Below are positions 1,824 through 63,113 of a stretch of DNA of 64,000 nucleotides, in pieces (position 1 is the first letter of the stretch; every line of letters starts with the position of its first letter). The stretch is taken from assembly GCA_947074105.1 (NCBI GenBank), contig CAMTON010000002.1:24003-88002 (forward strand). The letters run 5' to 3'. Under the pieces are notes generated by a model. That model did no database searches. It saw only the letters and a list, made by a program, of their open reading frames with translations, and was not told where the DNA came from. This stretch comes from an uncultured Bacteroidales bacterium. GTDB taxonomy: Bacteria; Bacteroidota; Bacteroidia; Bacteroidales; JAUNSR01. Both the position numbers and the translations under genes were made by a program.

Positions 1824-1846
1824 TATTTCCTAACAATAAAATATTA

Positions 1847-1877: not shown

Positions 1878-2033
1878 TATCTTATAACTAGGGTTAGGTT
1901 AAAGAATCGGTCATTTCATTTAAAATTTTCACTTCTTTATTTAAAAAATAAATACTTATCTATGTATTAATTTGTTGAAATTTGTGAAAATGATTTATTT
2001 TGTATACTAAACCTATTTCAGGGGAATTGCAAA

Positions 2034-2660: not shown

Positions 2661-2671
2661 AGCCATCATTC

Positions 2672-4015: not shown

Positions 4016-4053
4016 TATAAACTCAAATTAGAGAAGCTTTAAATTTTAATATA

Positions 4054-5277: not shown

Positions 5278-5305
5278 TATTTTATAAATTAATAAATAAA
5301 AAACA

Positions 5306-5551
5306 ATGGGAAATCTGGAGTTGATATCTAAAGTTAATGAAGTTCTTGCAGAAGAATTTGAAGTGGAAGTTGAAACAATTTCAGCAGATGCAAACATTAA
5401 AGAAACTTTGATGCTTGACAGTCTTAGCCTTGTAGATATGGTTGCACTTATCGAAAGCGAATTTGGTGTTAAGATTAAAGGTACTGAAGTAACAACAATC
5501 AAGACATTTGATGACTTATACGGTTTTATTTCTGAAAGAATAGCAGCGTAA
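5306..5551 (+). CDS. Acyl carrier protein
   Basis: 81 aa, acidic. Phosphopantetheine-attachment motif LDSLSLVDMV. Confidence 0.85.
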   Translation: MGNLELISKVNEVLAEEFEVEVETISADANIKETLMLDSLSLVDMVALIESEFGVKIKGTEVTTIKTFDDLYGFISERIAA

Positions 5552-5689
5552 TAAGTTCTGAAATATTAAGCGTTTATCTATTTCTATGAATAGTAAACGC
5601 TTAATGCATTTATGATAATTCATTACTGATGATTTGTTTTATCTGCGCTATGCTGCTGATGAAATAATATTATCGAAAAATTTAATATT

Positions 5690-6121
5690 ATGGATAAAGT
5701 CTTATTCAAAGGTGAACAGTTAGGTCGTCTTATTCCACAGAGAGCACCTATTGTTATGGTTGATACATTGTTTGAAGCAGATGAAGAATCTGCGCTGACC
5801 GGTCTTACAGTTGCTCATGATAATATATTTTGTGATGGTAAAGTACTTACCGAACCCGGTATAATAGAGCACATAGCACAATCCGCTTCAGCTTTTGCTG
5901 GATATAAGGCATATAAGAAGAATCTTCCTGCACCAATAGGTTTTATAGGAGAGGTCAAGAAATTCAAAGTCCATAAACTGCCTGAAATAGGAAGTAAAAT
6001 AAAAACCAATATAACAGTGATTTCAGAGGCTATGAGTATATCTCTCATTAAAGGAGAAGTAGTTTCGGAAAATGATATAGTAGCTTCATGTCAAATGAAG
6101 ATCTTTATAAAGGATGAATAA
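5690..6121 (+). CDS. Hotdog-fold 3-hydroxyacyl-ACP dehydratase (FabZ/ApeI-like)
   Basis: 143 aa. IPQRAPIVMVD resembles the LPHRYPFLLVD block of FabZ, followed by EHIAQS. Confidence 0.6.
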   Translation: MDKVLFKGEQLGRLIPQRAPIVMVDTLFEADEESALTGLTVAHDNIFCDGKVLTEPGIIEHIAQSASAFAGYKAYKKNLPAPIGFIGEVKKFKVHKLPEIGSKIKTNITVISEAMSISLIKGEVVSENDIVASCQMKIFIKDE

Positions 6122-6554
6122 ATTGAAGAAAGAAGAAAAACCGGTCCTGTCACTTTCTGTGCCGGTAAAAGTAAGATTTAGCGAAGTTGACTCACTGAAG
6201 ATCGTATGGCATGGAAGTTATGTCAAATATCTTGAAGACGGACGTGAAGCATTTGGCGAAAAATTCGGACTTGAATATATGCATATATACAATAGTGGCT
6301 TTGTAGCACCTATTGCAGATATGCAGTTCAAATATCTTAACAGTGCTAAAGTGGGAGATACACTTATCGTTGAAATAACATATGTGCCTTCACGAGCGGC
6401 AAAACTGATATTTGATTACAGAATCTATAGAGAGTCGGATCATGAATTGCTTACAACAGCCCGTACTATACAGCTTTTTCAGAGCCTTGACGGTACATTT
6501 GAGGTTTCAAACCCTGATTTCTTTCTTGAATGGAAAAAAAGGTGGAATCAATAA
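6114..6554 (+). CDS. 4HBT/YbgC-type acyl-(ACP/CoA) thioesterase
   Basis: 146 aa. RFSEVDSLKIVWHGSYVKYLEDGREAF is the typical hotdog thioesterase N-terminal block. Overlaps the upstream gene by 8 nt. Confidence 0.75.
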   Translation: MNKLKKEEKPVLSLSVPVKVRFSEVDSLKIVWHGSYVKYLEDGREAFGEKFGLEYMHIYNSGFVAPIADMQFKYLNSAKVGDTLIVEITYVPSRAAKLIFDYRIYRESDHELLTTARTIQLFQSLDGTFEVSNPDFFLEWKKRWNQ

Positions 6555-6566
6555 AACATAGAAATC

Positions 6567-6944
6567 ATGAGATTAAAAGATACTTATTATAAACTTGTGT
6601 CACATATAAATGACGGTAAATGTGATGTTTTTGAAGTAGATCTTCTTGCGGATCATCCTGTTTATGAGGGACATTTTCCGGGAATGCCGGTTTCTCCCGG
6701 AGTATGTAATATGCAGATGATAAAAGAATGCAGTTCCATTGCTGCACGAAAAGAGTTACTTATAGAAAATATTTCCGTATGCCGGTTATCAGCTGTAATA
6801 TCACCGCTCGATAATCCAAGAGTATTTGTAAAGATTCAAAACGACTTCATGGCAGAGGATAAATATAAAATAAACGCTACTATTGAAGATGATATGACAG
6901 TCTTTATGACTTTCAAAGGCGAATTGATAGAAAAGAAAGATTAA
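6567..6944 (+). CDS. Hotdog-fold dehydratase (FabZ/ApeP-like)
   Basis: 125 aa. Contains the FabZ signature HFPGMPVSPGV. Confidence 0.65.
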   Translation: MRLKDTYYKLVSHINDGKCDVFEVDLLADHPVYEGHFPGMPVSPGVCNMQMIKECSSIAARKELLIENISVCRLSAVISPLDNPRVFVKIQNDFMAEDKYKINATIEDDMTVFMTFKGELIEKKD

Positions 6945-6975
6945 CTAGTGCTTACAGAGGTAAAATAAGCGGAAT

Positions 6976-9453: not shown

Positions 9454-9510
9454 ATTCATATAATCCGAAATCGTCAGTTTGAGTACGATATTTTATAGGA
9501 AATCTAAATA

Positions 9511-10998
9511 ATGGATAAAAAAAGAGTCGTTATTATTGGAGGAGGTTTGGGAGGTCTGCAATGTGGCTGCATTTTAGCAAAGAATGGCTATAATGTAACG
9601 ATTGTTGAACAGAATAAACTATTAGGCGGATATATACAGAGCTACAAAAGAGGAAAACATATTCTTGATACCGGGTTTCATTATATAGGGGCTCTTGATG
9701 AAGGGAAACCTCTTAATAAAATATTCGGTTATCTGGGTCTACTTGATCTTCCCTGGCTTCGTCTTGATAATGATATTGCTGATGAGGTGATAATAGGCGA
9801 CAAATCTTATTATTACGCTTCCGGAATCGAAAAATTCGGAGAGAGTCTTAAAAAGCAACTTGGTGAATTTTATGAAGAAATTGACGAATATTGCAGGCTT
9901 CTGAATGAAGTAAAACAACAGATTGTTCCAAGTCTGAGAAGAAATGATCCGTCAGAATTGTTCAGTTCTGAATATTATACGACACCTGCTTACCAATATC
10001 TTAAAAATAAGATTAAGGATCCGTTGCTTATCGAAATATTATCAGGAGCATCTCTTAAAATGGAACTTGATCCGGAAAAACTTCCTCTATATATTTTTGC
10101 TCAGGTAAATTCTGCATTTATCCAAAGCGGATGGAGGATTAAGGGAGGTGGTCAGCAGATAGCTGAGAGACTTTCAGAAAATATAAAAAACAACGGAGGA
10201 ACCGTGATCACCGGTTGCAAGGTTAAAGAACTTCTGGATAAAGACGGAGTAGTAACAGCTGCACGTCTTGAGAACGGTAGCATTATTGACGGGGATTTTT
10301 TTATCTCAAATGCACACCCTTCAAATACATTAGATCTTGTAAAAGAAAATAAACTCATAAGAAATCTTTACAGAAAAAGAGTTAAGAATCTTGCGAATAC
10401 AGGCGGAATGTTTACCGTAAGCCTCCTTCTTAAGGAAGGAAGTATAAAATATCAGAATTATAATATATATAAACATAAGGAGAAATCATCATGGGATAAT
10501 TCGTTCTCTGATAAGAAAAACGGTGTGTCCTCTGTTATGGTAAGTTTTTTACCTCCGGAAGATGATTCGGAATATACAAGAATTGTTGATATTCTTACTC
10601 CTATGCAAATGTCTGAAATTGAAGAATGGAAAGACACTTCTCTTTTCAAAAGAGGTAAGGATTATGAAAAATTCAAACTTGATAAAGCATATGAATGTAT
10701 TGACTTTATTTCCGACAGGCTTCCCGGATTAAAAGATTCTATTGAAAAGATTTATACAAGTACTCCGCTTACTTACAGAGATTATTGTGGTATTGAAGAT
10801 GGTTCCGCATACGGTATAAGAAAAGATTGTAACAATCTCATGCTTACAATGCTTACACCTAAAACACCGATACCTAATCTTTTTATGACAGGTCAGAGTC
10901 TGATGATACATGGCGTGCTTGGTGTTTCAATGACAGCTATCATGACATGTTCGGAACTTCTGGATAAAGAAAATCTGCTTGCAGATATAGGATTTTAA
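9511..10998 (+). CDS. FAD-dependent oxidoreductase, phytoene-desaturase (CrtI)-like family
   Basis: 495 aa. N-terminal dinucleotide fold VVIIGGGLGGLQCG...VEQNKLLGGY. Length and architecture fit CrtI-like amine-oxidase-fold enzymes. Confidence 0.8.
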   Translation: MDKKRVVIIGGGLGGLQCGCILAKNGYNVTIVEQNKLLGGYIQSYKRGKHILDTGFHYIGALDEGKPLNKIFGYLGLLDLPWLRLDNDIADEVIIGDKSYYYASGIEKFGESLKKQLGEFYEEIDEYCRLLNEVKQQIVPSLRRNDPSELFSSEYYTTPAYQYLKNKIKDPLLIEILSGASLKMELDPEKLPLYIFAQVNSAFIQSGWRIKGGGQQIAERLSENIKNNGGTVITGCKVKELLDKDGVVTAARLENGSIIDGDFFISNAHPSNTLDLVKENKLIRNLYRKRVKNLANTGGMFTVSLLLKEGSIKYQNYNIYKHKEKSSWDNSFSDKKNGVSSVMVSFLPPEDDSEYTRIVDILTPMQMSEIEEWKDTSLFKRGKDYEKFKLDKAYECIDFISDRLPGLKDSIEKIYTSTPLTYRDYCGIEDGSAYGIRKDCNNLMLTMLTPKTPIPNLFMTGQSLMIHGVLGVSMTAIMTCSELLDKENLLADIGF

Positions 10999-11059
10999 AT
11001 ATAACAGGATCCTGAGGATCCATAAAAAAGATAACAAAAAACAGATAAATAATAATATT

Positions 11060-11788
11060 ATGAAATATGCTTTGGTAACGGGCGGAAGCCGTGGAATCGG
11101 AAGAGCGGTTTGTGTGAAACTTGCTTCAATGGGATACAATGTTGTAATCAATTATGTTTCTAATGAAGCAGAAGCTCTAAAGACAAAAGAAATGGTGGAA
11201 GCTTATGGCGTAGAAGGCGAAATCCTGAAATTTGATGTTTCAAATCGGGAAGAGACGGTAAGTGCTATTGAAAACTGGCAGGAAAACCATAAAGGTGAGT
11301 ATATCGAAGTTCTTGTTAATAATGCAGGAATCAGAAAAGATAATCTTATGATGTGGATGGAACCTGAAGACTGGTCGAGCGTTGTTAACATAAGTCTTGA
11401 CGGTTTCTTTAATGTAACGCGTCCTCTTCTTCAGCCTATGCTTGTAAAGAAATTCGGAAGAATAGTAAATATGGTTTCTCTTTCAGGTCTGAAAGGTATT
11501 CCGGGACAGGTAAATTACTCTGCTTCAAAAGCCGGAGTAATAGGGGCAACAAAAGCACTTGCCCAGGAAGTGGCTAGAAAGAATGTTACTGTAAATGCTG
11601 TCGCACCAGGATATATCAAAACAGACATGGTTGACGGATTAAATGAGGCTGAACTTAAAAAGCAGATTCCTGCCAACAGATTCGGAGATCCTGAAGATGT
11701 AGCCAATCTTGTAGGTTTCCTTGTTTCAAAAGATTCTTCATATATAACAGGAGAGGTAATCAATATAAACGGAGGATTGTATTCATAG
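11060..11788 (+). CDS. 3-oxoacyl-ACP reductase-like SDR (cluster ketoreductase)
   Basis: 242 aa. TGGSRGIGRA, NNAGI, YSASKAG. Confidence 0.85.
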   Translation: MKYALVTGGSRGIGRAVCVKLASMGYNVVINYVSNEAEALKTKEMVEAYGVEGEILKFDVSNREETVSAIENWQENHKGEYIEVLVNNAGIRKDNLMMWMEPEDWSSVVNISLDGFFNVTRPLLQPMLVKKFGRIVNMVSLSGLKGIPGQVNYSASKAGVIGATKALAQEVARKNVTVNAVAPGYIKTDMVDGLNEAELKKQIPANRFGDPEDVANLVGFLVSKDSSYITGEVININGGLYS

Positions 11789-11837
11789 TAGTCAGAATAG
11801 GAACCGATGTAAAACTGTCATTAAAAATAAATACGAC

Positions 11838-12458
11838 ATGACAATTTCAAAATTATCACTATCGTTTCTTTCAATTGCTTTTGCGGCAAATGTTTTTGCA
11901 GCTGAGCCGACATCAGATTTTATAAATAAACTGAAATCTGAAAATGAGAAAGTAAACACTATTGTTTGTCCTTTTAACCAGGAGAAACATTTCGAGATTC
12001 TTGAGAATGCGATTTTAAGTAAGGGGACATTCTATTATCAGAAGGATGATAAGGTCTGCATGAGTTATAATGATCCGCAGGGAGATCTTCTGCTCATAAA
12101 CGGGGAACAGTTCGTTATGATTACAAACGGTAAAACCCAGAGTAAGAATGCTCAGAATAAAAATAAATTCGGCTCATTAAAGAATCTGCTTTTCGCTTGT
12201 TTTCAGGGTGATCTGAATTCAATAGGTAATTGTTCTTTCAATTATTCGGAAGATGCTTCTTCGTATATCATTGATGTGGAAATGAAGAAGAAAAACCGAA
12301 TCCTTCCGGATAAACTTCATCTCAGATATGATAAAAGTAATTATCTGCTTACATATATGGAGATGGAGGAATCGAACGGAACAAAAACGATATATAAACT
12401 TGAAGGAAAGAAAATAAACACATCAATTGATGCAGGTGTTTTCCATTATAACAAATAA
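11838..12458 (+). CDS. LolA-like outer-membrane lipoprotein-carrier family protein
   Basis: 206 aa with a signal peptide (LSIAFAANVFAAEP). Size and position after the MMPL/KR genes match the LolA-like component of aryl-polyene/flexirubin clusters. The call is partly contextual. Confidence 0.55.
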   Translation: MTISKLSLSFLSIAFAANVFAAEPTSDFINKLKSENEKVNTIVCPFNQEKHFEILENAILSKGTFYYQKDDKVCMSYNDPQGDLLLINGEQFVMITNGKTQSKNAQNKNKFGSLKNLLFACFQGDLNSIGNCSFNYSEDASSYIIDVEMKKKNRILPDKLHLRYDKSNYLLTYMEMEESNGTKTIYKLEGKKINTSIDAGVFHYNK

Positions 12459-12495
12459 TAGCAGAATATAGAATTTTATTCTTGATTGTTTTTTG

Positions 12496-12503
12496 TATTT
12501 TTG
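12496..12503 (+). promoter_or_regulatory. Bacteroidota -7 promoter box TATTTTTG (TAnnTTTG) for proS
   Basis: Exact match to the TAnnTTTG consensus, 56 nt upstream of the proS ATG. Confidence 0.4.
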
Positions 12504-14124: not shown

Positions 14125-14321
14125 TTTCTGTCCTTTTTTTATTTTCGGGAGAAATTGAATTAATTTATTTTGGTTAAAAATAAGACATATAAGATTTGAT
14201 AATTAGATTATTATCAATAGACTCTATCAAACATCATTTAATTAAAACTAACAATTCTATAATTTAAATCTTAAAATTATTTGTATTTAAAAGAAATAGT
14301 TTGTTCTTTTGCCAAAAATAG

Positions 14322-14453
14322 AAACAAGGGGGTGCTCTTATTTTTAAAATCAATTAAAAGGATATCTAAAGAGATATGCCGGTATTTTAAAAGAAGATGC
14401 TGAGATTATACCCTATGAACCTGTAAGCAGTTAGGACTGCGAGGGAATTGTTT
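14322..14453 (+). promoter_or_regulatory. TPP (THI-box) riboswitch
   Basis: Conserved cores GGGGTGC ... GCTGAGA ... ACCC ... GAACCTG ... GCGAGGGA in the correct order. Long P3 hairpin (about 14336-14398). P1 is AAACAA (14322-14327) paired with TTGTTT (14448-14453). Sits directly upstream of thiD. Confidence 0.85.
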
Positions 14454-14524
14454 ATCCTGAAGATAACTGACCAACGCGTATTTCATCGCATAGTATCCTC
14501 TTGTTTCATATTTGTCAGAAACAT

Positions 14525-26643: not shown

Positions 26644-26787
26644 AATGCCGGTTTTAAATTCTGCAAAATATTCCGGTCAAATACCCGATACCGTTAAAGT
26701 CTATGGATTAATTAATATTATCACCCTTAACCTCTGTTCTGTAACTTCAGTTGTAGTTGTTTATCGTTTATAGTATATAAAAAATAC

Positions 26788-26866
26788 GTACAGTGTTAAT
26801 ATGACAACTGTACGGTTGCAATATTAACACTGCCCGGTTGTCATATGACAACCGGGCAGTTGTACG
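26788..26866 (+). repeat. 22-nt-periodic intergenic repeat, copy A
   Basis: GTACAGT | GTTAATATGACAACTGTACGGT | TGCAATATTAACACTGCCCGGT | TGTCATATGACAACCGGGCAGT | TGTACG. Includes a perfect 26-nt palindrome GCCCGGTTGTCATATGACAACCGGGC (26832-26857). Confidence 0.8.
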
Positions 26867-26901
26867 AAAAAGAATCTGAGCAATTTTTCTTTTTAAAACA
26901 G

Positions 26902-26931
26902 AAAAGGATGTACCGACGGGCACATCCTTTT
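26902..26931 (-). terminator. Hairpin terminator downstream of queE (possibly bidirectional)
   Basis: AAAAGGATGT / ACATCCTTTT stem. The minus-strand tail reads TTTTCTGTTTT. Confidence 0.65.
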
Positions 26932-35336: not shown

Positions 35337-35370
35337 AAAAAAGAGAATAGAAGAAACTATTCTCTTTTTT
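35337..35370. terminator. Bidirectional terminator between convergent genes
   Basis: AAAAAAGAGAATAG / CTATTCTCTTTTTT perfect stem. Overlaps the last codons of the 451-aa gene. Confidence 0.75.
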
Positions 35371-36712
35371 GATTCTCATCTCTGTATTCATCCAGTAAAT
35401 CTCCTATGTCTTCAATCATTCTGTTCTTATAATGCGTTATAAATGGTTTCTCATTGAGCAGAGGATTATTAAGATCCACTTTCTTTAGCTGAATAAAATC
35501 AGTTCCGAATATACATCTTCCCGGATCATAGGTGTCGTCCGGATAATGTCCTATAGAAAGAATGTCATCAGATATGTTATATGTAACCAGGTATCTTATT
35601 GTCAGGACAGATTTAAGATCATTGATATTTTCAAGAAATTTATTGTAAAATACAGCAATAGAAACCAGGCTGCCATCTTCCTCTTTGAAAGGCATAAGCG
35701 AAAAGATGGAAAGATAATTTTTCATTGCCGCATTACGACCGATAATAAATTCAAGGATAAGATACTCTTCATCAATACGAAAGAATTGCCAGAATCTGTG
35801 TTCTTTTGATGAATCGGTTATAATATCGTCGGCTTCAATCCATAATGTTGATTCATAATTGCGGCTTAATATAAGCTTGGGATAATTATGATTCTCAAAC
35901 CATACGCTTACATTGGCAATAATGCTGTTGAGAAAAAGAATAAGAGAAAGAGTGGTCTCATCCGGATCTTCCCCGCTTAAATTATAGATTGGAGTATTAT
36001 TGCGGCGGATATTATCCCGATCCATCATTTCAACTGATTTAACGACAAAATCTTTTGCCGCTTTTACAAAGGAAGAATTTGTCTTTAATTCTTTATCCGG
36101 CCTCTCAAACTTTGTAGAATATATGAAGGTGAAAAGATAACCATGGGTATAACCGCTTTCTTCAGTTTCAAGATTTTTAATAAGTCCCCGATAATGTATT
36201 ATATCATTATAATGCAGGGAAAAGATCTTATTGTCATGATAGAAATGGGTATTCTCTATTAAATTGTTATCATCTTCGTTCTTGCAGATAAAGATATCAT
36301 TTCTTGAAATAAGATTAAAATACAGACTTTCACGGGTATTAAAGTCAAATGCTTTATTCAGATCTATATCGCATAAATCATTATTCCTGTTATCAATGAA
36401 ATAGTTATATGCATCGATGACAGAAGAATATAAATTATAAGCAAGATGGTGACAGTAAGCCAGTCTTTTTAATGATATGTCTTCATTGTATTCAGAAATG
36501 TAATTTTCCAAAGCCATAATGACCGAAAGAGGATTATTCTTAATCCTGTTATTCCATTTTCGTTCTATCTTTTTTATTTCTTCCTTAGAAAGAGTTTTTA
36601 CTGTCTCTGCAGGTATTTCTTCTAAAATCTCAAGTATTGTTGATCTTTTATTTTTTCTCAGAAGTTTACTGTTGAAAACAAAGTCTATCAAATCATGTGT
36701 ATTATGAGTCAT
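35357..36712 (-). CDS. Hypothetical protein, 451 aa, no recognisable domain
   Basis: Long uninterrupted ORF in AT-rich DNA. No TM segment, signal peptide or motif that I can assign. Divergently transcribed from the AAA+ gene. Confidence 0.5.
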   Translation of the reverse strand: MTHNTHDLIDFVFNSKLLRKNKRSTILEILEEIPAETVKTLSKEEIKKIERKWNNRIKNNPLSVIMALENYISEYNEDISLKRLAYCHHLAYNLYSSVIDAYNYFIDNRNNDLCDIDLNKAFDFNTRESLYFNLISRNDIFICKNEDDNNLIENTHFYHDNKIFSLHYNDIIHYRGLIKNLETEESGYTHGYLFTFIYSTKFERPDKELKTNSSFVKAAKDFVVKSVEMMDRDNIRRNNTPIYNLSGEDPDETTLSLILFLNSIIANVSVWFENHNYPKLILSRNYESTLWIEADDIITDSSKEHRFWQFFRIDEEYLILEFIIGRNAAMKNYLSIFSLMPFKEEDGSLVSIAVFYNKFLENINDLKSVLTIRYLVTYNISDDILSIGHYPDDTYDPGRCIFGTDFIQLKKVDLNNPLLNEKPFITHYKNRMIEDIGDLLDEYRDENQKRE

Positions 36713-36948: not shown

Positions 36949-38697
36949 ATGAGTAAGAAGAACAGCAAAAAAGTATCGGTATTTTCTTCAATTTGTTTTC
37001 TGACGGAATCTCAGCATGATATGTTGCATAATGAGGAAACTGTTATAGAAAAGACAAAAGAAGAGGAAATTGAAATAGCAAAGAAGATCGTTTCGGAATC
37101 ATTGAATATCAATGAAGAGGAGATGGAGATTTTTCTTGCGGTTTTTGCAGTCAATCTTGTGTCTAATATATTACCTTCTCAAAAAGGAAGCTTTGATTCA
37201 ATTGCTGAAGAACTTAATATATCACAGATGAAGTTGTTGGAGAAATCTGATATACTTGATTCTCTTGTAAAAAAAGATATTCTTGATTGTCATAATTTCC
37301 CTGATGAAACTGAAAACAATCCTTTGAATAATTATTATTTGATTAATAACCTGGTAACCCATCAGCTTAATCTTGAAAAAGAACAGAATAAGTCAAAGAA
37401 GAAAATGAGTTCATATTCTTTTATCGAAGAAATGAGCTTCCTGTATAAGTATAAAAGTAAATCAAACATTAAATTAAATACGTTTGATAAGAAAATCAGG
37501 CTGCTTGAGAATAGATACGGAAAATCTGAATTCATAAAGACGATAAAGAAAAAGGTACCTTATATCTATGACAGGATTCTGTTTTATTATTTATGCATAT
37601 CTCACATGGAAATACAGTCATGTATGCGTATAAGTCTGCTTGTCAAGTGGATTCATACGGATATAAATGAAAGAATGAGTCAGTGGAATGGTATTGTTGA
37701 AGGAACAAGCTCTCTTGTAAAGGAAAATCTTATTGCCCTTGAAGAAGATGAAAAAGACTGGGCTGAACTTTCGGAAGAAGGAGAGAAGTTGTTTATGAAA
37801 GATCACACCAAACTTTTTGAAACAATAAATTTTGGCTCTAACGATACGGAATACAATAAGAAGGAAGAGACAGAGGAAAAAGAAAAGGAAAAGAGCGACG
37901 AGAAGTTTTACAAATTGTTGCGTCCTGAGGATATACAAAAGAAAGAGCTTTTTTATAATGAATCGGACAGAAAACAGATTGAGTCTCTTTTTGAAATCTT
38001 CAGGGAAGAAAAACTTAATTCATTGAAATCGGAACTTAAATCCCATAATATGAATACGGGGATATCGACAGTCCTTTACGGAGGTCCGGGAACAGGTAAA
38101 ACGGAACTTGTACTTCAGGTTGCGAAGTCTACCGGCAGACCTGTAATGATGGTTGAAATATCATCACTCAGAGTAAAATGGTTTGGTCAGTCGGAAAAGC
38201 TCGTTTCTTCACTTTTTGATGATTATGAAAAATATTGCGAAACTGAAGCTGTCACACCAATACTTCTCTTTAATGAAGCGGATGCTGTATTTCAGAAGCG
38301 TAATGAAAGAGATAACGGAGACAGAGGAACAGAAAATCGTATTCAGAATATCCTTCTTGATAAACTTGAGAAATTCAAGGGAATATCTATATCGACGACC
38401 AATCTGATCAATAATATGGACCGTGCTTATGAAAGAAGATTTCTTTTTAAAGTGAATGTTAATTCTCCGGAAAAGGAAACAAGAAAGAAGATATGGAAAT
38501 GTCGTCTTGAAAATATGAAAGAAGAAGAATATGAATTTCTTGCTTCAAAATATAAGTTTTCAGGAGGGGAGATTGAGAATGTTGTAAAAAAATGGATTAT
38601 TGAAAAAGTTATTAGCGGTAATTCTTCATTTGATAATCTTAAAGCAATATGTGATAATGAGAAAATTGTAAATCAAAGAAATGCAGTAGGCTTCTGA
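36949..38697 (+). CDS. AAA+ ATPase (classical AAA clade) with a long N-terminal helical/winged-helix-like region
   Basis: 582 aa. Walker A GGPGTGKT (38080-38103), Walker B ILLFNEAD (38260-38283, Asn where the usual Asp sits), sensor-1 STTN, SRH-like DRAYERRF, lid FSGGEIENVVKK. The N-terminal 370 aa has two wHTH-like segments and an acidic KE-rich linker. Confidence 0.85.
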   Translation: MSKKNSKKVSVFSSICFLTESQHDMLHNEETVIEKTKEEEIEIAKKIVSESLNINEEEMEIFLAVFAVNLVSNILPSQKGSFDSIAEELNISQMKLLEKSDILDSLVKKDILDCHNFPDETENNPLNNYYLINNLVTHQLNLEKEQNKSKKKMSSYSFIEEMSFLYKYKSKSNIKLNTFDKKIRLLENRYGKSEFIKTIKKKVPYIYDRILFYYLCISHMEIQSCMRISLLVKWIHTDINERMSQWNGIVEGTSSLVKENLIALEEDEKDWAELSEEGEKLFMKDHTKLFETINFGSNDTEYNKKEETEEKEKEKSDEKFYKLLRPEDIQKKELFYNESDRKQIESLFEIFREEKLNSLKSELKSHNMNTGISTVLYGGPGTGKTELVLQVAKSTGRPVMMVEISSLRVKWFGQSEKLVSSLFDDYEKYCETEAVTPILLFNEADAVFQKRNERDNGDRGTENRIQNILLDKLEKFKGISISTTNLINNMDRAYERRFLFKVNVNSPEKETRKKIWKCRLENMKEEEYEFLASKYKFSGGEIENVVKKWIIEKVISGNSSFDNLKAICDNEKIVNQRNAVGF

Positions 38698-49431: not shown

Positions 49432-49560
49432 ATTCTTATTTTAGCTTTAGTCTTATAATCTTATTTCGATAATACAAAGTTATGAAAGGTGAAACCTGAC
49501 TATATATATCAAATTACAGAAAACCTTATATAATTCACTGATTAGATAAATATGTTTTTG

Positions 49561-49640
49561 TGCAACTGTACACTTGCAATATTGTCATTGTACGGTTGTC
49601 ATATGAAAAGTGTACACTTGCCATATGACAACTGTACGGT
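49561..49640 (+). repeat. 22-nt-periodic intergenic repeat, copy B (most regular copy)
   Basis: TGCAACTGTACACT | TGCAATATTGTCATTGTACGGT | TGTCATATGAAAAGTGTACACT | TGCCATATGACAACTGTACGGT. Confidence 0.85.
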
Positions 49641-49698
49641 TTTAAGAAAAGTGACATTTCAAAGATTAAAAAAAAATGACAGGAGCATTTAAATAGGT

Positions 49699-56163: not shown

Positions 56164-57792
56164 ATGACAAAAAAGGCAATTCAGAAAAGCGAAATCAAAG
56201 AATATGTAGTAAATGATTATGTAAAAGCATATTCTCAGTTTATAGATAATTGCTGGACATACAGTGTATTTTCTCAGGATCCGAATGATGATATTTTTAC
56301 AAAGGAATTTAATGCAGGATTTGTACAAGCAAAGATTCAGGGGATAAAGGCTATTAAAGCCGCTCGTGATAATACATGGAGAAATCTTCTTATTTGCGGG
56401 ACACCTCAGGATAATATATCAATAGATATTCCTGACGGTGCATTAGAAACTGCTGCACAAAGCTTATGCAATAATTATAAATATCTTTATAAATGGCTTC
56501 AGGATAATGAAGGATTACGTATAGCAACAAATATTCGCCGTCTTCTTTTCAGAATGGCAGGTATTTATGCCGGAGTTAAATATGATAAACCTTCAAAGAT
56601 TACGTTCGATATGCTTGATATTAACAGGATCGATCCGATGGAGCTTAAACTTGGAGGATATGATGTTCAGGATCTTACTTTTATGGATATATATCTGATT
56701 AATGCTCAATGTGATTTGTTTGATGTTATTGCAGATAAGATTAATATGAGTTATGGTGAAGCAAGTGCCGCTAATCCTAAAACTATTGAGAAAAAACCGG
56801 AATCATGTTCTGCTTATGTCAAATATATGGATGACGGAGAGATTTTCCTTACTCATGTTACATGGAGCGGTTTCTATACCCAGACATGTGTTGTCAATTA
56901 TGTGATAGGAGATGATTTTATCTCTCAGAACGCTTATGCGCAGGGCCAGTTCGGAAGTAATCAGGATTTCGGATTTAATAAGAACGGAATTATTTTTAAT
57001 GAAACAACACATGCTCATTTATATAACGAGTCAAAAGAACTTGGAATATGGATTACATGGCGTTCGGCAGCTGCGGAAATGTTTGCAACTTCGATAGAAG
57101 ATTTCTATGATCATATATCCATAGACAATACCGGAACTTATCTTAACGGATATATGCTTGTTGATGTAAACAAAGGTCTTACAGGTCTTGTTGAAATGAG
57201 TTATAAACGTTTTGTTCTGTTTATTTCTGACGGAAAAACACTTAAAGTTACCGATTCTACCGGGCAGCCTGCAAAAGTTCGTGATTATGATCCTCATCTT
57301 ATTACTCCTACACATATTTTCGGAATAAATTATCCGATATCCCGCTGGGTAACATATGATCTTGAAACTATAGATACCCGTCCGATGAGAAGAGTACAAT
57401 TCTATCAGAATATAGATAAAGTACAATGTATTGAAACTGCTAAAGAACTTATTACTTATACGGATCCTAATGAGCCACTTTCTATATACGGAAGATGGGA
57501 TTTAGGTTACGGAGCCACAGAGTTTTGCAAGATGCGTCCTGACGGTTCGGTTGATGCTAAAGCAGTTTCTGCTTCTATGGTTAAAGATATCCTTAAGAAT
57601 CTGAAATATACACCGGATTTAGCAAGTGATAAAACATCTTTCTGGATGAAATTCGGTACTACTCCGATTCATGGACGTCCTTTCAAATGGTCAGAATCAA
57701 TGTTTAAAGATTTTAAAGGATCAATGGAAGATGATTTTGTTCCGGATTCTCTTGACGGAGGATGGAATCTGATGAAGTTATTTATGGATTAA
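56164..57792 (+). CDS. Phospholipase-B-like (PLBD/LAMA-like) Ntn-hydrolase-family protein
   Basis: 542 aa. ESCSAYVKYMDDGEIFLTHVTWSGFY resembles the HCSALIK...LLVAHNTW autoprocessing site of PLBD proteins. Further blocks: IIFNETT, NTGTYLNGYMLVD, GRWDL, DGSVDAKAVS. No signal peptide is seen. Confidence 0.65.
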   Translation: MTKKAIQKSEIKEYVVNDYVKAYSQFIDNCWTYSVFSQDPNDDIFTKEFNAGFVQAKIQGIKAIKAARDNTWRNLLICGTPQDNISIDIPDGALETAAQSLCNNYKYLYKWLQDNEGLRIATNIRRLLFRMAGIYAGVKYDKPSKITFDMLDINRIDPMELKLGGYDVQDLTFMDIYLINAQCDLFDVIADKINMSYGEASAANPKTIEKKPESCSAYVKYMDDGEIFLTHVTWSGFYTQTCVVNYVIGDDFISQNAYAQGQFGSNQDFGFNKNGIIFNETTHAHLYNESKELGIWITWRSAAAEMFATSIEDFYDHISIDNTGTYLNGYMLVDVNKGLTGLVEMSYKRFVLFISDGKTLKVTDSTGQPAKVRDYDPHLITPTHIFGINYPISRWVTYDLETIDTRPMRRVQFYQNIDKVQCIETAKELITYTDPNEPLSIYGRWDLGYGATEFCKMRPDGSVDAKAVSASMVKDILKNLKYTPDLASDKTSFWMKFGTTPIHGRPFKWSESMFKDFKGSMEDDFVPDSLDGGWNLMKLFMD

Positions 57793-57875
57793 ATATAAAA
57801 ACAGACTTCGTATTCTCCTGACGGAGGATGGAATTTGATGAAATTATTTATGGATTAAATAAAGAACAGATTTCA
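57746..57875 (+). repeat. Tandem duplication (about 65 nt x 2) of the 3' end of the PLB-like gene
   Basis: ATTCTCTTGACGGAGGATGGAATCTGATGAAGTTATTTATGGATTAAATA (57746-57795) recurs as ATTCTCCTGACGGAGGATGGAATTTGATGAAATTATTTATGGATTAAATA (57811-57860) with 3 mismatches. Similarity continues another 15 nt or so. Confidence 0.9.
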
Positions 57876-57969: not shown

Positions 57970-59118
57970 TTAATCCTCCAGAGAAAAAAAGAAACGCTGT
58001 GAATCCGAAGAAAATAATTCAGGATGTTTATCCGCTATATCCGGATGAAATACTCTTACAAGATCTTTCAGAATAATATGAGGCTGCATAGGAATAGTTT
58101 CATAATATGGAGAAACAGAAGTATTACAACCAAAAATCCGTTTATCCTCCCATGCTTTGAATTTAGAATATATAAGAGATTCTCCTTTGAGTCCGTTATA
58201 AGTCAGGGGAGAAGCATTATAATATTTTATAAGCCATATATCCGCATCATAAGCTCTTTCAAGCACCTCTTCTGCGGCAAGAGCTATAGAGCCGGAAGAG
58301 GAATTATCATTTATTGCCAGTTCCGCGCCTGCATCTTTATACAGAGCAGCGGCAAAACTGTTGTTTCCCGGCATATACCATACATTATTATATTTAGTCT
58401 CTGTAAGAAGGCGTGGTTTAAAACTTGATTGAGAAGCAAGATATTTAAGATCATTATATGACTTCTCTATTTCGGAAAAGACAGAATCTGCTTTTTCCAA
58501 TTCATTAAAAAACAAAGCCTGAAGACGAATCCATTCCGAACAGCCAAGCGGAGTCGGCTCCATATATTCTGCACACTGAAACAAAGGAATTCCTGTTTTT
58601 GCAAGTCTGGCATAAGAATTATTCTGAAAGGCAGGCACAAGAATAAGTTCTGGTGATAGTTCTATAATCTTCTCTATATCAGGAGATGAAGCCATTCCCA
58701 GATTTTCAATTTCTCCTTTTTTCAGACCCTCAACAACATGAGGAAGAGTTATATATTGCGGTTCACATACACCGCTTATTGTTTTCTCTACATTTAAATA
58801 AGAAAGAAGATTGCATTGGGGAGAATTGAATGCAACTGTTTTTTCAACCGGAATCCGCACTATTACTCCTTTAGGCAGATCTTTCGGTAATTCTTTTGAT
58901 TTATCCACGAGAACGATACTTTGTAATATTTTGGTTGTATCCCACGGATCTCTTGTTCTGATATGAGTATAATTATCGGTAATATTTACCGTAAATCCTT
59001 TTGCATATCTCAAAGGAAAATTGTCGGTTGCCGTTTCATTATTATTTGATCCGGAACATCCTGTAAATAGAAATAAAATAAATATCGGTATATATATCAA
59101 TATACTATATTTCTTCAT
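57970..59118 (-). CDS. Lipoprotein, periplasmic-binding-protein type (BtuF-like cobalamin/siderophore ABC substrate-binding protein)
   Basis: 382 aa. Lipobox LFTGC. Two-lobe PBP-like pattern (KTVAFNSPQCNLL...PELILVPAF...ADIWLI). Last gene of the cobalamin-riboswitch operon. Confidence 0.6.
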   Translation of the reverse strand: MKKYSILIYIPIFILFLFTGCSGSNNNETATDNFPLRYAKGFTVNITDNYTHIRTRDPWDTTKILQSIVLVDKSKELPKDLPKGVIVRIPVEKTVAFNSPQCNLLSYLNVEKTISGVCEPQYITLPHVVEGLKKGEIENLGMASSPDIEKIIELSPELILVPAFQNNSYARLAKTGIPLFQCAEYMEPTPLGCSEWIRLQALFFNELEKADSVFSEIEKSYNDLKYLASQSSFKPRLLTETKYNNVWYMPGNNSFAAALYKDAGAELAINDNSSSGSIALAAEEVLERAYDADIWLIKYYNASPLTYNGLKGESLIYSKFKAWEDKRIFGCNTSVSPYYETIPMQPHIILKDLVRVFHPDIADKHPELFSSDSQRFFFSLED

Positions 59119-59221
59119 AAAAATGATTCATTTAAATCAGAGGCATGATACGCTGCACTTATTTTATTCGGCAGAATGCGGCAGCAATATCACACCTCGT
59201 CATATTTATTTAGATAAGATT

Positions 59222-60319
59222 TTAATATGCAAATGCAACTTTAGCAGGAGAATAACCTACCTTATAAGTTGTCTGGATTTTGAAAAGAGAGCTGTAAACA
59301 TAGATTTCGCCAAGAGAACCATAAGTACTTTTAGAAATATAGATATTTCCGAAAGCAGGATCAACATCAATAGAGTTTGGATCAGTAAGCTCGGCAGAAG
59401 AAATGAAGTTTTCATTAGTTACCGCATTTTTGCTCAAATCATATGTTTTATAAGAAAGACTGTTTGCAACATAGTAATCATTATAAATGATATACATAAG
59501 ATCATATCTTGAAGCAATTTTAGATGCCGTTGTAAGATTTGTTGTCTGATAAGTCTTTGAGTCAATCTTTACAAGAGTAGAATATAAAGGCTCTATTCCG
59601 TTTTCGGGATCATTCTGTCCGAAATTTCCGCAACAAACTATATAAACGTTTCCGTCTGCTGCCGTAAGTGACTGATCATAAGGATTAAGATGAACTCCTA
59701 TAGTTCTTATATTTTCAAAAGTGGCAAGATCAACGACAGAAACACTATTTTTCTCATTCTGAGCAAGATAATGATTAGAATTGTTTACAAAAAGTTTTCC
59801 TTCAGCTACGGTAAGAGCTTCCGGGAAATCGCCTACTTTAACCTTATTGCCAAGTTCATAAGCGACAGTATCCATTGAGTGAACATAACCGTCATAAGCA
59901 GTAAAATAAAGATTACCTCTGTAAGACGTGATATATCTAGGAGAAACAGGCTTACCTGACTCATCTGTAAGATTGATCTCTTTTACAAGCTTTCCGCTTC
60001 TTTCAAGAACCATAACTTTAGATGATTCTGAAACCGTACAATATAATTTTGTACCGTAAACGCAGATATCCTGAAACAGGTCACCGATCATTCTGTCGTT
60101 TTCCTTATAAAAGATATCCTCTGAAACTCTTTTATTGATCAGATCAATAAATTGAAGAGAACCGTTATTCTCACCCCAGTTTCCCTGACTCACAACATAA
60201 GCTCCTTCAGTAGATATTTCAACAGAAGTATCGCCGATTTTTACTTCATCTTTTTCACACGATGCGAATGTTGCGGCAATTGCTGCCAGTGACATAACTT
60301 TAAAAAGTTTCTGATTCAT
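59222..60319 (-). CDS. Surface lipoprotein with a seven-bladed YncE-like beta-propeller (BtuG-like)
   Basis: 365 aa. Lipobox FASC. Seven repeats of the G-x-hydrophobic...S-x-V-x-V-hydrophobic-D type (GAYVVSQG..., GTKLYCTV..., GNLYFTAY..., GKLFVNN..., GNVYIVCC..., LMYIIYN..., GNIYISKS...). Immediately downstream of btuB. Confidence 0.5.
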   Translation of the reverse strand: MNQKLFKVMSLAAIAATFASCEKDEVKIGDTSVEISTEGAYVVSQGNWGENNGSLQFIDLINKRVSEDIFYKENDRMIGDLFQDICVYGTKLYCTVSESSKVMVLERSGKLVKEINLTDESGKPVSPRYITSYRGNLYFTAYDGYVHSMDTVAYELGNKVKVGDFPEALTVAEGKLFVNNSNHYLAQNEKNSVSVVDLATFENIRTIGVHLNPYDQSLTAADGNVYIVCCGNFGQNDPENGIEPLYSTLVKIDSKTYQTTNLTTASKIASRYDLMYIIYNDYYVANSLSYKTYDLSKNAVTNENFISSAELTDPNSIDVDPAFGNIYISKSTYGSLGEIYVYSSLFKIQTTYKVGYSPAKVAFAY

Positions 60320-60325
60320 GATTAT

Positions 60326-62437
60326 TTAGTATTTATATGTTATTGAAAATCTATAGTTTCTTCCCGGCATAGGATAGAAACGGATCACCTCATAATTTTT
60401 ATCCGAGAGATTTATGGCATCAGCACGTAGTAATAACGAATGACTGCCAATATTAATAGTCCGGTCAATCCACAATGAATGATCATAATATCCCGGTATT
60501 CTGTTCTGTGCTATATTCATATTAGAAGAATACCTGTGGGATGAAGCCACTAAAGAATACCCGAAATTTAATATCGGATTTTCTATTACTACCATCGCAT
60601 TGCCTGAATGCAGAGGAGTATAAGGTATCTGGTTGTCCCATAAATCTGAATTCCTGTCAGTTTTATCTCTTGCATCCATATAACTGTAAGCTCCCGTTAT
60701 ACCTATATTAATATGCTTTGTAATATTTATTCCTGTACTTACATTAAAATCCGCGCCACGTGTCTTTACCTTTGAAACGTTCATCATTTTCCAGATAAAA
60801 GAGGTAGGAAAAGCCACAATCTTATCATCCACCACATTATAATATATATCAGCTGTAAAATTCAGATATTCCATAAACTCAAAAGGCTGTCCGATCCATG
60901 TAATTCCTGCGTTTACCTGTTTTGATGTTTCCGGCTTCAGACTCGTATTTCCTACGACCTTGTAATACATATCATTAAATGTAGGAACTCTGAATATATC
61001 TTTATAAGATGCTCTTATACGAAGATTCGTGACATCAAACGGTTTATATGATATGGAAAAAGAGGGAGAAAGCCTTTTTCTGTCATCCGGCTGATTGCTG
61101 CTTTTCAGCTTTTCTTTGATAAAAGTATTAAGCAAAGTAGCCGTTATGGTTAATCTCCTGTCAGAATATTTTGCACTAAAAGCACTGAGCGAAGTATATC
61201 TTTCCGGATATACGTAATCCGGAATATTGGATTCAAGATAATTATAAACAATATCCTGCGACACAGAGAACGATAGAGCTTCCCATGGAGAATATAATGC
61301 CGATAAAGTAGCATATCCTTCATATTGTTCGAATCTGTTGTCCGTGGTGCTGTGTACCTGAACGTCGGTATATTTATTCCATGAATAATTTGCTTTAGCC
61401 GCAGACCTTAAGCTGAACTTCTCTGTTATCTCATTTTCATAATTAAGATGAACGAAATAATTTCTGTCACCAAGTCTTTCCGCGCTGTACGGATTATCAT
61501 ATATTATTCCTCCGGGAAGGCCTCTTTCACTGAAAAGAGCATATACCTTAGCGTTAAGAGTCTGTCTCTTACCGATATTTCCGTAAAGATTGATTTCTGA
61601 TTTGAGTGATTCTATATCACTGTTTGTCCTGGTTCCGTCAACAAGAGTATTTCCGTTTTTATAGGTGAAAGGATATTCTCCGTCAGATTTTATATAGTCG
61701 GCATAAACCGAATACATAAATCCCTGAGAAATACGCTGTGCAAACAGTACAGACGGATTATGAAGTTTATAAGATCCTCCGCGATATGACAGAGACATAT
61801 AAACAGGCTTTTCTTTTGAAAGTTCCGGACGCTTTGTCTCAATAAAAAGTACTGCTGCAGATGCATGGACTTTGGCCGGCTGAAATATATCGTCATTCTG
61901 ACCTATGCTCAGAGATAGCTGAGAAACATTATTAAGTGAGAAATTTGATAAATCTATTTGTCCTGACTGGCAATTGCTTATGGCAACACCATCATAACAG
62001 ACACCGGTATGTTCAGAACCCATACTGCGTACATTGATAGTCTTAAGACCGCCTATTCCTCCATAGTCCTTTACCATTGCACCAGAAAAGCGCTTAACGG
62101 CATCGCTTAGCGAAGGAGAGGAGATATTTGAAAGAAGTTCTTCACCGAGGATCTGCATAGGAGATCCGGAAGTCAGATTAGTCCTTTTTTTTGCTTTTAC
62201 GGTTACATTGTCAAGCACTCTCTCTTCTGCAATCTCAGTCAATGACAAAGTTTCTGTTGATTCTTTAACCGAAGATGAATAATTTGATTGTGAATCTGAA
62301 GAGGAAGCCACATAAGGAGCCTGCACATCATTCTCATCATATGCTTCTAAAGCATAAATCTGAGATGACGAACACAAAGCAAGAACCGAAATGATTCCAG
62401 TTCTAATTCCGTAATGATTATTTTTATGGTTGCTCAT
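60326..62437 (-). CDS. btuB: TonB-dependent outer-membrane receptor, cobalamin-type
   Basis: 703 aa with a signal peptide. Plug domain (DNVTVKA...GGLKTINVRSMGSEHTGVCYDGV), a 22-strand-size barrel and a terminal aromatic residue (ITYKY). Directly preceded by a cobalamin riboswitch. Confidence 0.85.
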   Translation of the reverse strand: MSNHKNNHYGIRTGIISVLALCSSSQIYALEAYDENDVQAPYVASSSDSQSNYSSSVKESTETLSLTEIAEERVLDNVTVKAKKRTNLTSGSPMQILGEELLSNISSPSLSDAVKRFSGAMVKDYGGIGGLKTINVRSMGSEHTGVCYDGVAISNCQSGQIDLSNFSLNNVSQLSLSIGQNDDIFQPAKVHASAAVLFIETKRPELSKEKPVYMSLSYRGGSYKLHNPSVLFAQRISQGFMYSVYADYIKSDGEYPFTYKNGNTLVDGTRTNSDIESLKSEINLYGNIGKRQTLNAKVYALFSERGLPGGIIYDNPYSAERLGDRNYFVHLNYENEITEKFSLRSAAKANYSWNKYTDVQVHSTTDNRFEQYEGYATLSALYSPWEALSFSVSQDIVYNYLESNIPDYVYPERYTSLSAFSAKYSDRRLTITATLLNTFIKEKLKSSNQPDDRKRLSPSFSISYKPFDVTNLRIRASYKDIFRVPTFNDMYYKVVGNTSLKPETSKQVNAGITWIGQPFEFMEYLNFTADIYYNVVDDKIVAFPTSFIWKMMNVSKVKTRGADFNVSTGINITKHINIGITGAYSYMDARDKTDRNSDLWDNQIPYTPLHSGNAMVVIENPILNFGYSLVASSHRYSSNMNIAQNRIPGYYDHSLWIDRTINIGSHSLLLRADAINLSDKNYEVIRFYPMPGRNYRFSITYKY

Positions 62438-62444
62438 ATAAAAT

Positions 62445-62675
62445 TATTCATCCTCTTTCCTCGAGAGGTGTTGAACGATCTGAATCAGCTATGGCAGGTC
62501 TTCTGACTTGTTTCGGATTATGGCAGCCTTCCCGGATACTATCCAGTGGCTAAAGGATTGCCTAATCGATATTTATGAAACTTACAGCTGCGGGACAGTT
62601 CCGGATTTTCACCGGATTCCCTTTTAAGATTAAGTCTGTATGAGACGATTAATCACCTTAGCGATGCCAAAGGTA
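62445..62675 (-). promoter_or_regulatory. Cobalamin (B12) riboswitch
   Basis: The minus strand reads AAAGGGAATCCGGTGAAAATCCGGAACTGTCCCGCAGCTGTAAG ... GCCACTGG ... CCGGGAAGGC ... AAGTCAGAAGACCTGCCA (B12 box). P1 is TGGCA/TGCCA (62665-62669 with about 62493-62497). A small hairpin CCTCT/AGAGG lies just before the btuB ATG. Confidence 0.85.
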
Positions 62676-62779
62676 TGATTTTTATTAAATTAAAAACAAC
62701 CTATATATCGATTTTTTTGAAAAATTTATCTCATGGATTTATATGGATATTTATAACACGAACCAATTATATCTTTTGC

Positions 62780-62864
62780 TGCAACCGTACAGTTGTCATA
62801 TTGCAAGTGTACGGTGACAACATGACAACTGTACGGTGGTAATATAACAACTGTCCAACTGTAC
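62780..62864 (+). repeat. 22-nt-periodic intergenic repeat, copy C
   Basis: TGCAACCGTACAGT | TGTCATATTGCAAGTGTACGGT | GACAACATGACAACTGTACGGT | GGTAATATAACAACTGTCCAACTGTAC. Confidence 0.8.
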
Positions 62865-63113
62865 AAAAAGAGCATATGTGAGCTTAAAAAGAGAGAGATA
62901 AAATACAGTTTAAATATATTATTTAATAATAATTTCAATAGCATTAAATTTATGTAATAAAAACACTTATTTAATACAAAAAAATTGTTTTCTTTAAGGC
63001 ATAAATTTTAACTGATGAATGTAGCAGGTAATTATTGAGTTGTTTGTCACATTATGGATCAGATTAAAGTGTATGAAAGATTAATCAACTGCAATAAAGA
63101 GTTTCAAATAAGT

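Follow-up and report, generated by a model that had tools for sequence, protein, structure and literature searches.

The stretch of DNA analysed here (the window) comprises 64,000 nucleotides of contig CAMTON010000002.1, from an uncultured bacterium of the Bacteroidales with an AT-rich genome (about 36% G+C). Three intergenic sites in the window, at 26788-26866, 49561-49640 and 62780-62864, consist of 22-nt units arranged head to tail and are referred to below as copies A, B and C, respectively. The units of copy B, the reference copy, read exactly as quoted in an earlier sequence-only reading of the window, and both other sites match its description of the same architecture. The extents of the three copies (window coordinates) and their principal stems are as follows.

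26779 to 26875, no strand assigned: copy A, with its core at 26788-26866 and full units starting at 26788, 26810 and 26832, followed by GGGCAGTTGTAC and an A-run.
26829 to 26860: stem of copy A, a perfect palindrome of 32 nt.
49553 to 49655, no strand assigned: copy B (the reference copy), with its core at 49561-49640 and full units starting at 49568, 49590 and 49612.
49568, 49590, 49612 and 49634: GTAC tetranucleotides of copy B, in strict register.
49587 to 49605 and 49622 to 49640: stem of copy B, with 19-nt arms centred on the GTAC at 49612.
62772 to 62873, no strand assigned: copy C, with its core at 62780-62864 and full units starting at 62787, 62809 and 62831, followed by GTCCAACTGTAC and an A-run.
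62784 to 62799 and 62822 to 62837: stem of copy C, a perfect inverted repeat of 16 bp.

Copy A is located between two convergent genes, 145 nt past the stop codon of EamA (+ strand) and 88 nt past that of QueE (- strand). A terminator-like hairpin (GGATGT...ACATCC, 26902-26931) with T-runs on both strands also lies between EamA and queE, separate from copy A. Copy B is in a tandem context, 58 nt past the stop codon of an ArAE/FUSC-like gene (- strand) and 129 nt before the start codon of DUF6282, in a DUF6282-tautomerase-AKR-flavodoxin operon; it lies 79 nt upstream of a -7 box of the Bacteroidetes type (TAACTTTG, 49475-49482, - strand; motif TAnnTTTG). Copy C occupies a divergent spacer that separates a cobalamin riboswitch and the btuB operon from an NlpC/P60 gene. 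It precedes the NlpC/P60 start codon by 189 nt and, on the - strand, the -7 box in front of the riboswitch (62668-62675) by 105 nt. The motif TAnnTTTG was found neither inside any copy nor near copy A. The neighbours of the three copies, EamA/QueE(QueD), ArAE/DUF6282-AKR and btuB riboswitch/NlpC-P60, are functionally unrelated.

The cobalamin riboswitch beside copy C scores 114 bits (62476-62675, - strand), and both the riboswitch and its -7 box, TACCTTTG, are conserved in a sister species. The operon downstream of it (57970-62437, - strand) encodes a TonB-dependent receptor, a DUF5074 protein and a periplasmic binding protein and presumably serves to take up B12.

A period of 22 nt was called by Tandem Repeats Finder at 26798-26852, 49589-49641 and 62804-62854 and nowhere else in the window, and a repeat-family search grouped eight overlapping 61-nt copies with an exact spacing of 22 nt. 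The decamer ACTGTACGGT, with at most one mismatch, occurs nine times against 1.0 expected, a count reached in 0 of 100 shuffles. In leave-one-out searches with nhmmer, the profile of any two arrays recovered the third with E values from 4e-16 to 3e-18. No solitary or degenerate units were detected outside the three arrays in the 64 kb, either by nhmmer or by a 22-nt weight matrix that was built from the nine full units and used to scan both strands down to 12 bits. The period, the spacing, the excess of the decamer, the weight matrix and the leave-one-out results thus rule out a low-complexity coincidence: the repeat family is genuine and its copies are homologous. In the window and the 10 kb on each side of it, which represent 84 kb of this species, there are three clusters, amounting to about 11 units, and no further copies. 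As the sequence-only reading stated, all copies are intergenic and non-coding; the open reading frames (ORFs) that cross the arrays are only mechanical (20-72 amino acids) and have no reading frame in common, so that small peptides are not supported.

In the register starting at GTAC, the consensus of the unit is GTACGGTTGTMATATGACAACT, which is a circular permutation of the consensus proposed earlier. The module is composed of the tetranucleotide GTAC and an 18-nt imperfect palindrome centred on ATAT. Seven columns (G1, C4, T7, A12, A14, T15 and A20) are invariant in all nine core units, a further four (T2, A3, T13 and T22) are conserved in eight of the nine, and the GTAC tag is intact in 8/9. 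The best-conserved parts are the palindromic cores GTAC and ATAT, with centres 11 nt apart, and the symmetric pair T7/A20, while the arms between the cores are variable (GGTTGTC, ACTTGCA, AGTGTTA, GGTGACA and GGTGGTA were observed). The 7-nt arms within a unit pair at 2-7 of seven positions (mean about 4), and perfectly only in unit A3; the best pairings are between the arms of neighbouring units, giving one long stem per array. Two dyads per unit with centres 11 nt apart had been described, and of this description the phasing of the GTAC and ATAT cores is real but the arms are weak, matching at about 4/7 positions per unit.

All three copies have a common layout of about 100 nt, in which three full units are preceded by a partial one and followed by a terminal partial unit and an A-run; the terminal partial unit reads GGGCAGTTGTAC in copy A, GTACGGTTTTAA in copy B and GTCCAACTGTAC in copy C. 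They are colinear over about 110 nt with zero indels and a pairwise identity of 60-67%, and a left end common to B and C, ATAT(G/C)TTTT..TGCAAC, agrees at 15 of 22 positions. The shared layout, the colinearity without indels and the common left end of B and C fit a discrete element better than a free-running minisatellite, and the array looks like an element of about 100 nt with internal periodicity. The strict 22-nt register ascribed to the family holds in copy B, where all four GTACs are in phase, but not at the ends of A and C, where the last GTAC lies 8 nt out of register and forms the shared terminal partial unit. Local alignment against shuffles revealed no significant leader or tail shared beyond the periodic core. 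The flanks, a T-run on the left (B and C) and an A-run on the right (A, B and C), are inverted and not direct.

The element is strand-symmetric. The leave-one-out scores of B and C are equal on both strands, B and C are 71% identical on opposite strands versus 67% on the same strand, and each element is 55-65% identical to its own reverse complement about several centres spaced 11 nt apart. The units follow one another head to tail at 22-nt spacing, and the palindromic unit and tag make a direct arrangement indistinguishable from an inverted one. The copies had been reported to share the same orientation; given this symmetry, an orientation cannot be defined.

This anatomy could be that of a phased platform for protein binding or DNA wrapping. 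The GTAC and ATAT cores, which alternate every 11 nt over about 90 bp and contain flexible TpA steps, would be presented on one face of the DNA, with a nucleoid-associated protein, gyrase (as at BIME-2, a bacterial interspersed mosaic element (BIME) of Escherichia coli) or a cooperatively binding dimeric regulator as candidate ligands, and binding would affect supercoiling nearby or the promoters that lie 80-105 nt downstream of B and C. Several observations are consistent with this. The invariant columns are the dyad centres and T7/A20 while the arms vary; the 22-nt register is kept without a single indel despite 33-40% divergence; and strand symmetry is expected of the target of a symmetric protein. 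In addition, a -7 box lies 79 nt downstream of copy B and another, on the same strand, 105 nt downstream of copy C, and BIMEs are documented to bind integration host factor, gyrase and DNA polymerase I (PMC2817692). GTAC and CATATG are also the sites of RsaI and NdeI, respectively; they are neither avoided nor enriched across the window (GTAC occurs 111 times versus 121 expected), and the idea of a restriction-site function was dropped.

The sister species has a BtuB that is 70% identical and the same NlpC/P60 - btuB gene order, with an NlpC-BtuB spacer of 442 nt compared with 616 nt here. When the two spacers are aligned, a single gap of about 121 nt is present where copy C sits, and the riboswitch and the -7 box are conserved. 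No copies and no analogous arrays of 20-24-nt units were found in about 65 kb of the sister species or in about 20 kb of more distant relatives. A combined EamA and metallophosphoesterase query, aimed at the counterparts of the sites of copies A and B, gave matches to the metallophosphoesterase only, so that the orthologous comparison covers the site of copy C. Other differences from the sister species concern the surroundings of copy B: the sister carries an extra cassette with an ECF sigma factor, FecR and a TonB receptor after the B12 uptake genes (locus L045, 15014-19191), its LysE gene exists only as fragments of 79 and 50 amino acids (locus L045, 21528-21931), and its metallophosphoesterase orthologue is at an unrelated locus and is not syntenic. 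The cassette, the fragments and the displaced orthologue place the region of copy B near synteny breakpoints.

With the contexts of the three copies and the sister species considered together, a phased platform, although the main rival of the reading preferred below, appears rather unlikely. Copy A is between convergent genes with no promoter motif near it, the neighbouring genes share no function, the sister species retains the btuB promoter and riboswitch without an array, no candidate binding protein is linked to the arrays, and three copies are too few to tell constraint from concerted evolution of the units. That copy A sits between convergent genes and that copy C can be dispensed with speaks against a regulator of particular genes but does not count against a structural role. 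A bolder version, in which the arrays are selected by the host and are not selfish, each being a strand-symmetric platform of about 90 bp wrapped by a nucleoid protein or topoisomerase of the Bacteroidales and keeping its cores in exact 11-nt phase through a sequence turnover of 35-40%, is in our estimation improbable; if true, the platform would be the functional counterpart of the BIME-2 gyrase sites of E. coli in a phylum with no described case.

Given the convergent, tandem and divergent contexts, the unrelated neighbours, the sister-species spacer without copy C, and the absence of replication and partition genes from the window and its flanks of 10 kb each, the cooperative protein-binding array of iteron or centromere type that the sequence-only reading had suggested is not supported. 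Sites resembling parS or matS, phage operators, invertase sites and the ends of Tn7-like elements were also set aside, as no matching genes are near and the three contexts differ.

As RNA, the arrays fold with -34 to -45 kcal/mol and z-scores of -3 to -9 on both strands, which bears out the earlier expectation of several alternative hairpins. The elements fold far better than shuffles on both strands, both as RNA and as DNA. The strand preference differs between copies: the + strand of B is better by 10 kcal/mol owing to G-U pairs, the two strands of A are equal, and the - strand of C is slightly better. Copy A contains striking, apparently compensatory pairs (GCCC with GGGC and AGTGTTA with TAACACT), yet covariation beyond the palindromic consensus was not significant (P about 0.07-0.08) against a null in which residues were permuted within columns, the palindromic consensus being kept, with the summed folding energy of the three arrays as the statistic; no claim of compensatory covariation is made.

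In the scan of the window at Rfam gathering thresholds only the cobalamin riboswitch was recovered, and the arrays remained below the Rfam thresholds throughout, in agreement with the statement that they belong to no named RNA family. The Bacteroides RNA BTnc060 was considered and rejected: it matches copy A only, largely through the downstream linker and terminator, with 26.9 bits against a gathering score of 228.9, and one paper on BTnc060 contains no link to this element. Other permissive Rfam matches at the arrays are far below threshold and are mostly to generic microRNA-precursor hairpin models. A terminator scan found no intrinsic terminator at copy B. On the + strand the arrays are trailed by A-runs, not T-runs; on the - strand B and C are trailed by CAAAAACA and GCAAAAGA, respectively, and a T-run follows the array in copy A only.

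These folds raise the question of a role at the RNA level, in which hairpins in the neighbouring messages would shield 3' ends, serve in processing or termination, or form a small RNA. The stability of the folds is in keeping with it, as are the position of copy A in the likely 3' untranslated region (UTR) of EamA ahead of the hairpin at 26902-26931, that of copy B 58 nt past the ArAE stop codon, and the 10 kcal/mol by which the + strand of B folds better than its - strand. Repetitive extragenic palindromic (REP) sequences, moreover, stabilise upstream mRNA, as is generally known and is discussed in PMC3733652. The strand preference is, however, inconsistent, and the better-folding + strand of B is antisense to both flanking genes; copy C is upstream of both of its divergent genes with no promoter motif to drive its transcription; the hairpins of B and C lack a trailing U-tract, and scanning for terminators gave nothing; no Rfam family reaches threshold, the best match outside the microRNA models being that to BTnc060 in copy A; and the covariation test was not significant. 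An RNA-level role is therefore regarded as a poor prospect.

The distribution of the family was examined with an exact-pattern query, an 18-mer common to all three copies. In a reference set of one genome each from 185,579 species it gave seven matches, all singletons, of which the two inspected are without periodic context and look like chance. In the JGI metagenomes it gave 15 matches, all chance except one doubtful locus; the chance matches are mostly in coding sequence. Two scans of viral contigs and BLAST searches of plasmids and of phages gave no match. Finding only chance matches elsewhere indicates a lineage-restricted family, as REP families and families of MITEs (miniature inverted-repeat transposable elements) are, and on these searches the present family would be confined to this lineage of the Bacteroidales.

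The doubtful locus is on JGI contig Ga0209773_10007756, where an AT-rich stretch (920-985) has an 11-nt periodicity and contains the 18-mer ATATGACAACTGTACGGT. It adjoins a 74-nt tandem repeat (473-902, 5.8 copies, 95% identical), and the contig has few ORFs. The stretch scores only 19 bits and had been pre-selected by the 18-mer; its relation to the family is doubtful and it was not counted as a member.

Contigs of the same species were found in ENA and Logan assemblies at 98.5-99.97% identity (9 of 10 at 99.6% or above), and the arrays in them are invariant apart from one single-nucleotide polymorphism. The ENA assemblies ERZ14021412, ERZ14021370 and ERZ14023305 each include this organism, and an NCBI contig of 117,834 nt encodes variants of BtuB and ArAE with more than 90% identity to those of the window. 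The element disrupts short-read assembly. Public assemblies of this species break inside or beside copies A and C (window positions 26831 and 62842-62896); a Logan contig stops at the 32-nt perfect palindrome of copy A, and at copy C a pair of ERZ14021370 contigs shares an overlap of about 55 nt.

The comparison among copies and strains is relevant to a further explanation, that the arrays are inert relics dispersed by ordinary recombination or segmental duplication, with a periodicity maintained by slippage within the array, quasi-palindrome template switching and gene conversion, and involving neither an enzyme nor a function. The low copy number in the sampled 84 kb, the high divergence between the copies and the lack of a mobilising gene nearby are compatible with such an origin. 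The units also have no positional orthology between copies (A1, for example, is closest to C3 and C2), as shuffling or conversion of units would give. Under free slippage, on the other hand, the same number of units and the same terminal partial unit in all three copies would not be expected; unit number does not vary among strains; and the three sites are 13-23 kb apart with no flanking homology to indicate a segmental duplication. An inert relic is, on balance, very improbable.

The reading that we prefer, and to which we would give about an even chance, is that of a lineage-restricted, small palindromic extragenic element, either REP/BIME- or REPIN-like or MITE-like with an internal minisatellite as in the BrickBuilt element, that spread by copying to several intergenic sites, through an enzyme whose gene is elsewhere, and has since become fixed. 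It is suggested by the fixed common layout, the unrelated contexts, the absence of copy C at the orthologous site, the narrow distribution and the hairpin potential. A trans-acting enzyme from elsewhere in the genome would have copied the element into intergenic DNA; our guess is an HUH/Y1 enzyme (of the IS200 type or a REP-associated tyrosine transposase, RAYT) acting on hairpins in single-stranded DNA. The copies would then have become fixed and would now be stable residents. Their main physical property would be the formation of hairpins or cruciforms of 15-20 bp as DNA, or of hairpins as RNA when read through in the 3' UTRs of EamA and ArAE. We infer, rather than observe, that the element is mobile, what kind of enzyme moves it and that it does not regulate particular genes.

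Several observations weigh against a mobile palindromic element. Only three copies are known, as seen in 84 kb. No terminal inverted repeats can be defined, since no terminal sequence is significantly shared beyond the periodic core, and the flanks of the three copies contain no direct duplication of a target site. No transposase, RAYT or insertion sequence genes are present in the window or its flanks of 10 kb each; a cognate RAYT or IS200-type gene, for which the sequence-only reading had advised a search, is thus absent from the window and the adjacent 20 kb. The 33-40% divergence between the copies is unlike that of recently active MITEs or REPINs (REP doublets that form hairpins), and the strict register with seven invariant columns despite this divergence hints at constraint rather than decay. 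The tag, GTAC, is neither of the REP tags (GTAG or CGTC), the head-to-tail arrangement is rare among REPs (PMC3733652), and the individual units are poor hairpins, with arms matching at about 4/7. The non-significant covariation counts here too, as does the lack of polymorphism in presence or in unit number among roughly 10-20 metagenome contigs of the same species with an identity of at least 99.6%. Finally, the "empty site" for copy C rests on the alignment of an AT-rich, diverged spacer in which insertion and deletion are indistinguishable.

Elements of this kind serve as strain markers and can flag breakpoints of synteny; they also interrupt assemblies made from short reads, of which copies A and C are examples here. 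Should it have a cognate Y1 transposase or a binding protein, the family would help in studying how single-strand DNA is transposed, or how the nucleoid is organised, in gut Bacteroidales. Known from three copies, it is at present a catalogue entry and not a discovery.

Several other features of the window and its surroundings were noted. Positions 1-12500 contain an aryl-polyene or flexirubin-type lipid cluster with genes for two TetR regulators, SDR/KR enzymes, an acyltransferase, a ketosynthase, an acyl carrier protein, ApeP-like and ApeI-like proteins, a thioesterase, an MMPL/RND transporter, a CrtD-like desaturase and a LolA-like protein. A full-length but sub-threshold match to the thiamine pyrophosphate (TPP) riboswitch (14318-14464, + strand; 33 bits versus 54.3, E value 3e-4, 147 nt for a 105-position model) is just upstream of a thiamine operon that begins with thiD at 14501 and continues with TenI/ThiE, ThiG, ThiC, ThiH and ThiF to 21262. 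The match probably marks a diverged THI element containing an insertion, one missed at the default Rfam threshold. A 451-amino-acid ORF without a Pfam match (35357-36712, - strand) is divergent from an AAA ATPase of 582 amino acids (36949-38697, + strand), whose best NCBIfam match is the anti-phage ATPase IteA at 91 bits, far below the cut-off of 510. A 66-nt tandem duplication (57746-57874, 2.0 copies, 90% identical) covers the stop codon and roughly the final 50 nt of a phospholipase B-like gene (56164-57792), which therefore has a second, untranslated copy of its 3' end after the stop codon. At 5-10 kb beyond the right edge of the window is a trio of DUF3375, MksE/JetB and SbcC-like SMC ATPase genes (locus L033, 15723-20573), MksBEF- or Wadjet-like, which is also present in the sister species.

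Several known systems invite comparison. The arrays are not CRISPR, as had been concluded earlier: their units abut without unique spacers, and Pfam and NCBIfam scans of the window ORFs that were scanned revealed no cas domain. With operator, iteron and centromere arrays (the tripartite operators of phages, plasmid parC and iterons) they share three to four imperfect palindromic or repeated sites at a spacing near two helical turns, which places the sites on one face of the DNA. Unlike those systems, they have no adjacent replication, partition or repressor gene; the same array recurs at three chromosomal loci that are unrelated, one of them a 3'-3' spacer between convergent genes; the sister species does without one of the copies; and the would-be half-sites, namely the arms, are the least conserved part.

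The description "REP-like" remains the best available comparison. REPs, BIMEs and REPINs, found for example in E. coli, Pseudomonas, Haemophilus and Stenotrophomonas, are mobilised by RAYT Y1 transposases; such systems are characterised by imperfect palindromes of 20-40 nt, tens to hundreds of extragenic copies, units paired mostly head-head or tail-tail, and a single-copy RAYT gene with repeats on its flanks. Published REPs include modules of 22 nt in which a 4-nt tag is followed by two arms with a short loop between them, such as GTAGGGTGGGTCTTGACCCACC of Haemophilus parasuis (PMC2817692), and REP families keep the tag and vary the stems and loops (PMC3733652). Like REPs, BIMEs and REPINs, the present modules are short, extragenic, palindromic, clustered and lineage-restricted; each 22-nt module has a 4-nt tag, after which two arms, the first about 8 nt long, enclose a short loop; the tag (here GTAC, with the ATAT cores) is conserved and the arms or stems vary; neighbouring modules are able to form one long hairpin; and copies occur beside the 3' ends of genes. 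By contrast, the present tag is not GTAG (GT[AG]G) or CGTC but the palindromic GTAC, whose G1 and C4 are invariant; the modules abut head to tail without a spacer, form weak single hairpins and are AT-rich; and the 84 kb contains only three clusters and no RAYT, with one copy in a divergent promoter region. The REP superfamilies are GTAG- and CGTC-tagged, with head-to-tail dimers rare, and for Bacteroidetes no type other than CGTC is reported (PMC3733652). The string GTAC is absent from the main text of that survey (PMC3733652), and Bacteroidetes are not mentioned in the main text of two REP/RAYT papers (PMC2817692 and PMC5581495). The family appears to be undescribed, and its palindromic GTAC tag, head-to-tail 22-nt modules and strand symmetry vary the known small palindromic repeats.

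Nothing comparable for the Bacteroidales was found in the REP/RAYT papers checked, and the nearest case is BrickBuilt (Klein et al. 2015), a MITE of Porphyromonas gingivalis that is dispersed and intergenic and has a spacer-less 23-nt tandem core that forms long stem-loops (PMC4596501). About 19 copies are present per genome, with 1-23 repeats in numbers that vary between strains, and BrickBuilt carries IS5-like terminal inverted repeats, its leader and tail segments reach about 300 nt, and promoter activity has been measured for it (PMC4596501). The two elements have in common a host in the Bacteroidales, a dispersed and strictly intergenic location, the lack of an Rfam match and restriction to a species. 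They differ in that the BrickBuilt unit (AGACCATAGTATCCTCTCATATG, 23 nt) is unrelated in sequence and not doubly palindromic, and that terminal repeats of the GAGACCTTTGCA type are absent from the sequences of copies A, B and C. The present element instead has a fixed core of three units, no detectable leader, tail or inverted-repeat ends and no internal -7 motif. A promoter inside the array, as in BrickBuilt, was considered and rejected on the lack of TAnnTTTG in any copy, a sigma-70 scan being uninformative. If a genome-wide census confirms the present family, it would add to the Bacteroidales a GTAC-tagged, strictly phased, head-to-tail type of palindromic extragenic repeat. As the BrickBuilt precedent shows, this order is not without dispersed intergenic elements that carry stem-loop-forming tandem repeats with units of about 23 nt.

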